NCBI GenBank assembly: GCA_963701965.1
Contig: OY969695.1
Span: forward strand, 4,096,001 to 4,160,000
Length of the DNA: 64,000 nt
From: an uncultured Gemmatimonadales bacterium
GTDB lineage: Bacteria; Gemmatimonadota; Gemmatimonadetes; Gemmatimonadales; Gemmatimonadaceae
Reading direction: 5' to 3'
Made by a program: the position numbers and the translations under genes. Positions within the stretch are counted from its first letter, which is position 1; each line of letters starts with the position of its first letter. Below are positions 23,286-26,635 of the stretch, one piece after another. The notes under the pieces are model-generated. The model ran no database searches. It was given only the letters and a program-made list of their open reading frames with translations, and was not told the DNA's origin.

Positions 23286-25278
23286 TTAATTGGGCGCAAT
23301 GCCCAGCGCCCGATACACATCGGTCGCGCGGTACAAGACGCCGCCCCGGACGGTCAGTTCGACTTTTCGAATGTCTCCAATGTGCGCCAAGGGGTTGCCG
23401 TCGACCAAGAATGACGTCCGCTTGCTTGCCTTCGGTGATGGACCCGCGTTCCGCGTCGTGATGCATGATGCGGGCGGATCCGATCGTCGCCAGTTGGAGA
23501 ATGGCCGGTGCCGGAATGCCGGCCTCGGCGTACAGCTCGAGCTCGCAATGATACAGGAATCCGGCGAGGCCATCGGTACCGGCGACAATGGGGATACCGG
23601 CGCGGTACGCTTCTCCCACCATCCGAACCATGGCCGCGTAGGACTGGCGATAGCGCTCATCCAGCCCCGGTGGGACCGGGAGTCCGCCGCCGTACAGGCC
23701 GCGACGCACCTGGGCTGGCAGTCGCGCCGCGATGGGCGAGAAGCTCCGGGAGAGCACCCGTGGCCGGCCGACGAACATGTCCTCGAAGGCGCCGAGGGTC
23801 GGATCGAGATCGGTGCCTCGTGCTTTGAGTAATCGCAGGAAGCTTTGGACGCGCTCGGACTGCAAGTCGAGGGCGGCGCCGCTGGCGGCGACCGCGGTAA
23901 ATCGCGACATCGCGCGGGTGTCACGGACGGTGTCCATGAAGTTGAGCATCAGGAAATTCGCGTGCTGCAGCTCGTCGAATCCCAGCCGCACGACTTGCTC
24001 GGCGGTCATGAAGGCGGGCACGTGGCCGCTGACGCGCAGGCCATGGCAATGTGCTTCATCGATGATGGCGGGGACGAGCTCGGGCTTCATCGAGCTATAG
24101 ATCTTGATCTGCTCGAACCCGAGCGCGGCGTACCGGTCGACTGCGGCACGCCCCTCGGCTTCCGTGGACGCCAACATACCGATGGGTACCTGATACGGGC
24201 CGGGCGAGTCAATGAGGCCGGCCAGCACCACGCGCGGGCCGATCAACTCACCCGCATCGAACTGGCGGCGTAGGCGCAGCACGTTCGCGGTGTCGTTGCC
24301 CATGTCGCGACCAGTCGTGACGCCGGCCGCGATATCCAGCATGCCTTCCGTGCCCGGCTGAATGTGGACGTGCATGTCCCACAGGCCCGGTAGCAGCATC
24401 TTGCCGGTCGCGTCGATCACGGTGGCGCCCGGCGGCGCGACCACCGCTCCGTCCTCTCCCACGCGCTCGATGCGGTCGCCGCGGATGACGACCGTGGTCC
24501 GAGGGCGCGCCTGCGCGGTGATGGCGTCGAACAGGGCCGCGTGCTGGAACACGAGGATCGCGGGATGCTGGGCCAGCGATCGCGCGACGCGCGTCAGGCG
24601 CGCCGACTCCACGCTGTCCTGCGCGGCGATCATGGCCGGCACGGCCTTCTCCCATCCCGTCCGGATCGTGCTCGACCACGAGGACACGGTCCCGAAGAAC
24701 CGCTCCTCTTCGTCGAGCCAGATCGGCGCGGGGTCAAACCCGAGTCCCGTGACGGTCCACAGCACGACCGTCTGGGAACGCCCTTTCGCCTCCACGGCGA
24801 GCGACCGCACGCGCTCGATGTGCGCCTCACCAGCCGGCAGCAGCGGCAGGGTATGCGCGGGTGCCGCCACGAGCGCCTGAGCCAAGGCGGCCGAGGGCGC
24901 GCCGGCAACGTCAATGTAGTAGCCGGGCCGCGCCGGTTGTTCCTGGTCGCCTTCCACGTTGTTCGACCAGCGCATCGTCCGGCCGTCCGTCGAGAATCGT
25001 TCGTCGACGGTGTCCTTGAGATAGTCGTGCCCTTCGATGGCCACCAGGCGCGGAGTGCCACCGGCGCCGGCGATCACATGCTCGCGCACCTGGGGCCCCC
25101 GCCCCCGATCGTTGAACTGGTAATCCGCCCACCATTCCGCGCGCGTGCCCCAGATCGAGAGGGCGCCGGCCGGCCGGTCCGAGAACAGGACGGTGTAACG
25201 CAGGGTGTCGCCGGTCGACTGGGCGGACAGGCGCGCCGCGAGACTCAGGAGGCTTAGGAGGAGCGACAGACGGGTCAT
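23286..25278 (-). pseudogene. Secreted amidohydrolase (imidazolonepropionase-like) with a frameshift near 23410 close to the C-terminus (possibly sequencing error)
   Basis: Signal peptide; LLPGLWDMHVH, AGTD, GSITEGKQADVIL; continues as LVDGNPL...VRGG in another frame ending at 23286. Confidence 0.85.
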
Positions 25279-25279
25279 A

Positions 25280-25355
25280 TGCTCGGGGGAAGGATTCGAA
25301 CCTGCACTGGGTGACAGGTCGCTGACGCCGCGTGGCACATATCTATAAGGCGAGC
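25280..25355 (-). other. Degenerate copy of tRNA-Leu (attR-like or pseudo-tRNA)
   Basis: GTGCAGGTTCGAATCCTTCCCCCGAGCA resembles the tRNA-Leu 3' end GTGCGGGTTCGAGTCCCGCCCCGAGCA. The 5' GCTCG and internal ACGCG sit at the same offsets as in the real tRNA. Confidence 0.7.
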
Positions 25356-25413
25356 GCGACATCTGCCATCATGCGGTGATCGGGCGAAAGGACCACGGAT
25401 TGATGGGTGCTTC

Positions 25414-26256
25414 ATGACGATTGCTGTCGTACTCAAGGTTGGCGACGGGCTGATACTCGGTGCTGACAGCGCGGTGACTCTTACTGGCAGCAAGGGAGTA
25501 ACGAACGGCTACTTCAACGCTGAAAAGATCTTCCGTCTTGGGCGAGACTTAAGGGTCGGGGGCGTGACGTACGGCCTCGGTCAACTTGGCGGGCGGTCCA
25601 TCACGAGCTTGGCGAAGGATCTTAAGGCTCTGATGTCCGCGAACGAGCAGCCCTGGAGTGCATCGCCGACCACGTACACGATTGAGGAAATCGCCACCAA
25701 GCTTCGCCGCTTCTACTACGAGGACCGCTATCGAGCGGAGTACGCGCCAAGGTCGCTCGATACGGGCAAGTACCCCGGCCTGGGATTTTTCATCGGAGGC
25801 TATTCAGCGAATGCCGAACATCCGGAGGTTTGGCGGGTCGAGGTTGACGAGAACGGTAACTGCGACGCACCTGTCCGGGTTATCGATAGTGACAAAGTCG
25901 GTGCCCTGTGGGCCGGTCAGCCGGAAGCGCTGAACAGACTGATGAATGGGTATTCGGGTGCGGTTCTCGAGGGGCTCGTCCAATCGGGCGCGCCGCTGGA
26001 TGAAGCGTTTAAGTTTCTAAGGTCTCTGCCCGTGACCCACCTTTCAGCCGCTGCGATGCCGATACAAGATGCGATCGACCTCGTCAAATACATGGTCGAG
26101 GTGACGGCCGGTTTTGTTAGGTTTGCGCCCGGACCTAAGACCGTGCATCCTCCTACGGACGTAGCGGCCATCACGCGACACGAGGGGTTCTGTTGGGTGC
26201 AGCGCAAGCATTATTTCAACCGCGAACTCAACCCGAGCTTTGGAACTCAATGGTGA
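25414..26256 (+). CDS. Proteasome-beta/Ntn-hydrolase-like hypothetical protein (island gene)
   Basis: N-terminus (M)TIAVVLKVGDGLILGADS...NAEKIF gives Thr1, Asp17 and a KI-motif Lys. More A/T-ending codons than its neighbours. Confidence 0.7.
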   Translation: MTIAVVLKVGDGLILGADSAVTLTGSKGVTNGYFNAEKIFRLGRDLRVGGVTYGLGQLGGRSITSLAKDLKALMSANEQPWSASPTTYTIEEIATKLRRFYYEDRYRAEYAPRSLDTGKYPGLGFFIGGYSANAEHPEVWRVEVDENGNCDAPVRVIDSDKVGALWAGQPEALNRLMNGYSGAVLEGLVQSGAPLDEAFKFLRSLPVTHLSAAAMPIQDAIDLVKYMVEVTAGFVRFAPGPKTVHPPTDVAAITRHEGFCWVQRKHYFNRELNPSFGTQW

Positions 26257-26257
26257 A

Positions 26258-26431
26258 ATGACAGTCACCGTGCACAGCATTCCCACGGATACACCGAACC
26301 TGCCGGGATACACATATCCCCCGCCGAGCATCGATCGAGGACAGACGGGCCCGGAACTTCATCCGACCCCAGCGCCGCTTTCGCGCGAAACGGTCGAACG
26401 GTTGCGCGAATCCCTCCGGCAGCGCGCCTAG
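26258..26431 (+). CDS. Small Pro/Thr-rich hypothetical protein (57 aa)
   Basis: ATG one base after the stop of the Ntn-like gene; C-terminal amphipathic helix LSRETVERLRESLRQR. Confidence 0.45.
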   Translation: MTVTVHSIPTDTPNLPGYTYPPPSIDRGQTGPELHPTPAPLSRETVERLRESLRQRA

Positions 26432-26519
26432 GCGATCTCCTAGCCTGACTGGTTAGGGCTGCGCGGCCACGCCGATGGGCCGCGGTGGCGCGGCGGTGCA
26501 AAGCGTTGCGGCACAACAA

Positions 26520-26601
26520 TGCTCGGGGCGGGACTCGAACCCGCACGTCTTGCGACACGGGATCCTAAGTCCCGCGCGTCTACCAATTCCGCCACCCGAG
26601 C
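26520..26601 (-). tRNA. tRNA-Leu (anticodon TAG)
   Basis: GCTCGGGTGGCGGAATTGGTAGACGCGCGGGACTTAGGATCCCGTGTCGCAAGACGTGCGGGTTCGAGTCCCGCCCCGAGCA: class II cloverleaf with long variable arm; CCA not encoded. Confidence 0.97.
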
Positions 26602-26604
26602 GAC

Positions 26605-26635
26605 AAAAAAGGGGCGCTGCCGAAGCAGCGCCCCT
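26605..26635 (-). terminator. Rho-independent terminator downstream of degP
   Basis: Minus strand AGGGGCGCTGC-TTCG-GCAGCGCCCCT followed by a T-run. Confidence 0.85.

Follow-up and report, generated by a model that had tools for sequence, protein, structure and literature searches.

A predicted proteasome-type protease and a coupled small partner gene in a tRNA-associated cassette of a Gemmatimonadales bacterium

A short cassette beside a tRNA-Leu gene of an uncultured Gemmatimonadales bacterium encodes a predicted threonine protease with a proteasome-beta fold and, directly downstream, a conserved small partner protein. The protease and its partner likely form a protease-controlled toxin-antitoxin or anti-phage module, because about three of ten related cassettes have a longer partner and, behind it, a gene for a known or predicted toxin. 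The protease family itself has already been described (Fuchs et al., 2021; PMC8665760); the coupled partner and the toxin link are added here. Neither the partner gene nor the three-gene form was found in a literature search conducted mostly outside subscription papers. The DNA under study, referred to as the window, is the whole analyzed stretch of 64,000 nucleotides (assembly GCA_963701965.1, contig OY969695.1, positions 4,096,001 to 4,160,000).

The cassette and its integration site

The initial annotation placed the cassette between an intact tRNA-Leu(TAG) gene and a degenerate copy of its 3′ end, and both borders were recovered (Table 1). The alignment score of the degenerate copy was reached by none of 20,000 random genome windows; the 3′ ends of tRNA-Leu(TAG), tRNA-Tyr(GTA), and tRNA-Leu(TAA) tie in score, so that the copy may derive from any of the three. 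As had also been described, the protease gene is oriented against the amidohydrolase gene, the tRNA gene, and degP, all of which lie on the reverse strand, and it uses more A/T-ending codons, with a GC3 of 0.67 vs. 0.82–0.89 in eight neighboring genes. This value falls in the lowest 8.5% of 3151 long ORFs from a rough genome-wide calling, and among the family loci, 106 of 114 copies have a lower GC content than their own flanks. No integrase, hslU, or Anbu partner gene is present among the ORFs adjoining the protease gene, in line with the earlier description of the cassette as integrase-less, and the gap of only ~90 bp between partner and tRNA holds no toxin gene. Amidohydrolase orthologs in four congeners are found at another locus, and the amidohydrolase gene of the window contains a frame change near its 3′ end (~23400–23450), so that the gene is disrupted or the assembly is wrong at this point.

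Table 1. Features of the cassette, its surroundings, and selected related loci
Feature	Location	Strand	Basis or remark
Amidohydrolase gene	23290–25278	−	Its start lies 1 nt past the degenerate copy
Degenerate tRNA 3′-end copy (decayed att-like repeat), far end of cassette	25280–25307	−	23/28 columns identical to 3′ end of tRNA-Leu(TAG)
PMI-2-like proteasome-beta (Ntn) threonine hydrolase, predicted, 280 aa	25414–26256	+	Model, conservation
Pro-rich partner gene, 57 aa	26258–26431	+	Aligns with related partners; profile match
tRNA-Leu(TAG), intact, host	26520–26601	−	ARAGORN; integration site
Terminator-like hairpin, 11 pairs	26610–26635	−	After degP, immediately upstream of tRNA
Island of congener G003, 5.2 kb	L037:4347–9614		Integrase, 52-bp duplication
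MazF-like family, 156–235 aa	L088:8140–8676, L079:8202–8876, and 18 other loci		Predicted MazF/PemK fold
Hydrophobic third gene, 55–58 aa	L065, L090, L139, L218, L241, L269, L290		Conserved
E. coli prophage long forms	L304:5001–6284; L305:3787–5190		One convergent with Q, one right after repressor
Long form, 436 aa, with 61-aa partner (genome G032)	L036:2610–9751		

Relatives with an empty tRNA-Leu-tig site, which the initial annotation had proposed for comparison, were identified in two congeners, G001 and G005, where 173 and 105 bp, respectively, separate the tRNA 3′ end from tig, compared with 3244 bp here. The tRNA-tig DNA missing from these congeners amounts to 3.2 kb because it also includes the amidohydrolase gene. 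In the congener G003, the same tRNA-Leu(TAG) carries a different island (Table 1). Together, the two empty sites and this island establish the site as a real integration target. The protease gene is present in two of the six genomes of the genus and patchily in the phylum (14 of 301 genomes). The G001 homolog is 49% identical to the window protein and resides at tRNA-Gln, in an island that has an integrase gene and a duplication of the tRNA end; AbiE genes lie just past that island. Vertical inheritance at the window site was rejected, as three congeners are empty or otherwise filled there, and it is also opposed by the 49% identity of the G001 homolog vs. 85% for tig and 81% for degP. These findings support the earlier reading of an accessory gene at a real integration site. 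The window protein belongs to a 33-row clade (SH-aLRT 100) in which all named rows are Gemmatimonadota, indicating that it moves within the phylum and does not come from afar. A tRNA gene was present within 2 kb in 8 of 75 loci vs. 4.3% expected in the window genome, which is a modest enrichment. The nearness to tig-clpP-clpX-lon, to which attention had been drawn, looks incidental, because the tRNA belongs to that place natively and no Clp/Lon gene recurs near the protease gene in 97 related loci; a functional tie to these genes was rejected on the grounds of this non-recurrence.

Fold, active site, and family of the protease

Removal of the initiator Met from the ORF, which encodes T2, D18, K38, and G54, leaves Thr1, Asp17, Lys37, and Gly53 in the mature protein, in agreement with the first reading of its N-terminus. 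An AlphaFold2 model (pLDDT 91) supported the suspected proteasome-beta fold: the best match in a fold search was Anbu (5loy; Z 18.1, rmsd 3.3, 200 residues aligned), and the best 21 matches were all proteasome-family chains (Z 10.1–18.1), with Z values of 13–18 for 20S subunits, 12–13 for BPH and HslV, and 10–11 for Connectase. Conservation of the catalytic residues, examined as had been suggested, is high among 120 distant representatives (T 90% plus S 7%, D 99%, K 99%, G54 98%). The window protein differs at positions 41, 44, 47, 71, and 260 from residues conserved in 92–98% of near homologs, and a relative 75% identical to it exists. Ser129 and Asp166 of the proteasome have no conserved counterpart in the family, as judged by eye. 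In the model, the catalytic Lys sits four residues later than in the proteasome, the H1–H2 loop comprises 14 residues, and extra helices (182–203) are placed between the helices at 171–178 and 217–237, i.e., only between H3 and H4. The window proteins had no match in Pfam, NCBIfam, or PADLOC, phmmer with the window protein found no relative in the PDB, and the best hit of a protein profile in the PDB was only yeast beta1 (E 0.055). The family matches 5184 clusters at 50% identity, a number that may include other proteasome homologs.

Although the system was initially proposed to be undescribed, the family fits PMI-2, one of the “Proteasome homologs with Multiple Insertions,” in the available parts of a survey that defined 22 new proteasome homolog families and reported no clue to function from their genomic context (Fuchs, Alva, Lupas, 2021; PMC8665760). 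This placement follows the published description and record titles and not a direct sequence comparison; the PMI-2 representative WP_137109689.1 was not among the cluster members listed for 10 proteins. Shared with PMI-2 are the Thr1/Asp17/Lys/Gly core, the absence of a propeptide, which is a feature of PMI proteins, the insertion restricted to H3/H4, and the taxonomic range given in Table 1 of the survey, which covers Proteobacteria, Firmicutes, Actinobacteria, Bacteroidetes, PVC, and Euryarchaeota (PMC8665760). In the parts of that text available, neither the partner gene nor a toxin link appears.

Anbu is the best structural match of the window protein, tied with 20S beta, but the identity is 14%, the model lacks the long C-terminal helix of Anbu, and the Anbu operon partners (transglutaminase, ATP-grasp, Alpha-E) are missing from the ORFs adjoining the protease gene and from the recurring neighbors of the 97 loci. 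The 20S beta subunit has a propeptide, whereas the window ORF begins with Met-Thr, and no alpha-like gene adjoins it in the window or recurs in the 97 loci. HslV shares the fold and the N-terminal nucleophile (Z 12.7) but has hslU adjacent, a neighbor that neither adjoins the protease gene of the window nor recurs in the 97 loci. Connectase likewise shares the fold and nucleophile; it has, however, lost H1/H2 and gained a two-helix S3/S4 lid, while the window model retains H1/H2 and has no such lid.

The partner gene and its relatives

The protease gene had been regarded as stand-alone, a view that cannot be maintained given the coupled partner ORF, which the first reading missed. The partner starts 1 nt after the protease stop; an alternative TTG start at 26240 would give 63 aa. 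It aligns with the partners of its own clade, and a profile from which it had been left out ranked it first (E 1.2e-11) among the 80,471 segments of a six-frame genome translation. Among 136 short-form loci, obtained by dereplication at 80% identity from 177 loci examined and 164 usable, a partner was found in 120 and not found in 16, where a partner is an ATG ORF of 40–125 aa starting at −20 to +50 relative to the protease stop. In controls, such ORFs occurred at 829 of 4080 random positions (20%) and at 356 of 2011 long-ORF ends (18%). The start offsets of the partners peak at −4 (27 loci) and −8 (11 loci). A further 18 loci contained the partner in 12 cases, and it was not found in the other 6. 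The partner is short and rich in Ser, Ala, and Pro. Partners have no invariant residue in common, even inside one clade; none of 129 scanned matched an antitoxin family in Pfam. A motif picked by eye, [YF]x[YF][QPTK], was present in 29 of 129 partners vs. 5.6 ± 2.1 in shuffled sequences.

A third gene is coupled to the partner in 42 of the 136 short-form loci. Pfam toxin matches were obtained for 14 of these loci (PemK 5, ParE 4, of which one is below the cut-off, Fic/Doc 3, and PIN 2); 20 encode members of an unannotated family that a structure model links to MazF (best E 5e-4), and 6 encode small hydrophobic proteins, with the third genes of two loci assigned by eye. The third genes thus fall into six kinds, which are scattered on the protease tree with 21 label changes. 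No toxin gene was recognized in the window’s clade (33 of 33 rows). The MazF-like family, 17 of whose 20 loci come from one clade, is a candidate divergent toxin family, its link to MazF coming solely from a fold search with a model of pLDDT 72; the members scanned matched nothing in Pfam, NCBIfam, or PADLOC, and no link was obtained to five PemK sequences by profile or to the PDB by sequence. The hydrophobic protein is a candidate membrane toxin. The partner gene preceding it always specifies one and the same tail motif, and this pairing was repeated at L290, which came from a separate draw from the phylum.

Partners are longer in three-gene loci (median 88 aa vs. 62 aa), and their C-terminal tails follow the effector. 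Comparison of the final 28 residues gave matches in 20 of 48 pairs with the same effector vs. 2 of 277 pairs with different effectors. Left out of this comparison were L279 (membrane group), seven partners of doubtful status, and 14 of the 20 MazF-like loci, and 15 of the 20 matches come from the membrane-protein group. Same-effector matches persist even where the proteases are only 29–37% identical, and 13 of the 277 different-effector pairs are alike in their N-terminal parts. The partners of L101 (ParE) and L241 (membrane protein), for example, have an 11-residue stretch in common and different tails, and that of L100 (ParE) is similar (z 8.7) to the partner at L064, a two-gene locus whose protease is the nearest to that of L100. 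In one case, L249, the protease and a partner-like segment form one continuous ORF upstream of PemK, a fusion that could reflect a lost stop codon.

A long form of the protease, 401–440 aa, has ~120 extra residues between H1 and H2 and fits the description available for PMI-4, whose long insertion after H1 the window protein lacks (PMC8665760). Partners of 46–70 aa accompany 29 of the 32 long-form loci listed, none of which shows a coupled downstream toxin, and the partner is annotated in two GenBank phages. In prophages, long-form genes adjoin the repressor gene or sit between Q and the lysis genes; others are carried by streptococcal satellites. Such prophage positions are typical for defense cargo. 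In E. coli, long-form genes were matched by DNA in 22 of 5426 genomes; L304 has an unannotated partner of 49 aa, and at L305 no partner was found. One row of the DefensePredictor supplement labels an E. coli protein of 427 aa, which has a Proteasome match, a “predicted novel defense gene” (PMC13092281); an E. coli family member of the same length and with a similar locus tag may be this protein. The genes beside the long form of L036 read like type I restriction-modification genes, as named by eye. Defense genes were seen near 9 of 27 Gemmatimonadota loci and not near the other 18; these are raw counts with no background rate, from a scan of 70 of 132 picked ORFs in which matches to the L044 kinase, the L070 Csa3 model, and the DrmD model (L215 and L075) were dropped as non-specific. 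Several Gemmatimonadota copies are flanked by housekeeping-like genes.

A long form from a streptococcal satellite is homologous to the window protein over its full length (hhalign 99.4%, E 3.8e-21), is likewise mobile, and is followed by a 55-aa ORF. In satellite Javan421, a 401-aa long form follows genes matching HigB and HigA of Streptococcus pneumoniae TIGR4 (sp_1143 and sp_1144; E 2e-76 and 2e-55). Because this synteny and the protein size agree, TIGR4 Rrp (SP_1145) is probably a long-form member, a placement made by these features and not by alignment. According to the available part of its description, Rrp is a 44.8-kDa, proteasome-beta/Anbu-like protein with extra domains, encoded on a phage-like element; cloned by itself, this low-specificity protease caused a marked slowing of E. 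coli. It cuts the extension of a ribosomal protein, rescues a prp deletion, and shows activity in lysates of normal pneumococci, and strains from which it was deleted grew slightly more slowly (10.64898/2026.08.10.744006). It is presented there as a ribosome-rescue protease, with no partner named.

Proposed function and alternatives

As most loci contain only two genes, the simplest working unit should hold its effector among those two. The conserved enzyme seems to fit this role better than the short, variable, and hydrophilic partner, and for this reason a toxic protease restrained by its partner, serving phage defense or element maintenance, is favored, tentatively and with slightly less than even confidence. 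Under this proposal, the enzyme would become active after Met removal and would likely be toxic to its own host when free, and the partner would bind it as an inhibitor or decoy substrate. Infection may cause the partner to be lost, displaced, or cleaved, freeing the protease. Where a third gene is present, its product (a nuclease, Doc, or a membrane toxin), held by the partner tail, would be released along with the protease, so that these forms could represent a second toxin added on the same switch. The window copy would be a mobile two-gene form with no integrase beside it, for which a defense role is plausible. In favor of the proposal are the modeled fold with its conserved active site, the partner coupled to it, the patchy insertions at tRNA sites, and the toxin-tracking tails, together with the prophage and satellite positions of the long form, the defense genes near some loci, the DefensePredictor entry, and the slowing of E. 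coli by Rrp. Counted against it are the 33-row clade with no recognized toxin gene, the dominance of single groups in the tail and MazF-fold counts, the loci at which no partner was found, the Gemmatimonadota loci with no defense neighbor, the modest tRNA enrichment, and the five departures of the window protein from conserved residues, as is a benign role of Rrp, which fits the reported activity in normal lysates and slow-growing deletion (10.64898/2026.08.10.744006, in part). The literature search found no experiments on short-form members.

The tail data can also be read differently. The three-gene relatives may work in a manner analogous to toxin-antitoxin-chaperone (TAC) systems such as HigBAC and CmdTAC, which have an antitoxin with an extra segment, a third component, and swappable toxins, and a harmless enzyme might only stabilize or cleave a partner that gates a separate toxin; two-gene copies such as that of the window would then be disarmed relics or act on a toxin encoded elsewhere. 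The scatter of six third-gene types over the tree, partners composed of a protease-side segment and an effector-specific tail, and the enriched aromatic motif suit this idea, the last because TAC chaperones recognize aromatic patterns (10.1101/2024.02.24.581848, in the part available). We nevertheless consider it unlikely, since about two thirds of short-form loci and all 32 long-form loci listed show no coupled toxin gene downstream and yet keep the catalytic residues and the partner. TAC systems differ in that their third component is a SecB-like chaperone and not a predicted protease with a proteasome fold; the partner shows no DNA-binding or antitoxin Pfam family, and the window locus has no toxin gene. 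Like the window pair, type II toxin-antitoxin modules consist of two coupled genes, one of them small. Slightly less likely still is an accessory protein-quality peptidase carried by mobile elements, in which the partner would help assembly or act as a propeptide in trans, and in which common toxin-antitoxin modules would have landed downstream and supplied the toxin genes. Such a role agrees with the ribosomal-protein cleavage and prp-deletion rescue by Rrp (10.64898/2026.08.10.744006), the lack of propeptides in PMI proteins (PMC8665760), both as far as these sources are available, and the copies between housekeeping-like genes. It is at odds with the finding that no gene other than that of the partner separates the protease from the toxin, and the partner has no antitoxin-family match, with an N-terminal part that tracks the protease and a tail that tracks the toxin, and with the low GC relative to the flanks and the prophage positions of the family.

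Decay of the window copy into a remnant with no current function is improbable: the missing integrase, the degenerate repeat, the five unusual substitutions, and a long end branch (0.76 vs. a median of 0.36) point in that direction, but both ORFs are open, the four active-site residues are intact, and a relative of 75% identity exists. The transpeptidase role raised in the initial annotation gained no positive support and is the least probable reading. A Connectase-like enzyme would attach the partner to proteins of the host or a phage, in the manner of a Pup-like tag; the available account of Connectase, which has the same fold, describes sequence-specific ligation (PMC7980362), and the partner is short and rich in Ser, Ala, and Pro. 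Against this reading, Connectase scores below Anbu and 20S beta, the model lacks the lid and retains H1/H2, and the partners have no invariant residue.

In broader terms, PMI proteins may form the core of a widespread and as yet undescribed class of protease-gated toxin-antitoxin immune systems in which the partner is a phage-sensitive switch, its tails repeatedly plug in toxins, and the window represents the minimal form. This generalization, which spans bacteria, archaea, prophages, and satellites and the toxins MazF, RelE/ParE, PIN, Doc, and membrane proteins, is possible but doubtful. Should it fail, what remains is one more member of a family described without a function. The locus gives the PMI group a partner and a candidate substrate or inhibitor. 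If the generalization is true, a proteasome-type active site would control toxin release in prokaryotic immunity, as the protease counterpart of chaperone-gated TAC systems, and the activity of pneumococcal Rrp would appear in a new light, as incidental to a mobile module of genetic conflict.
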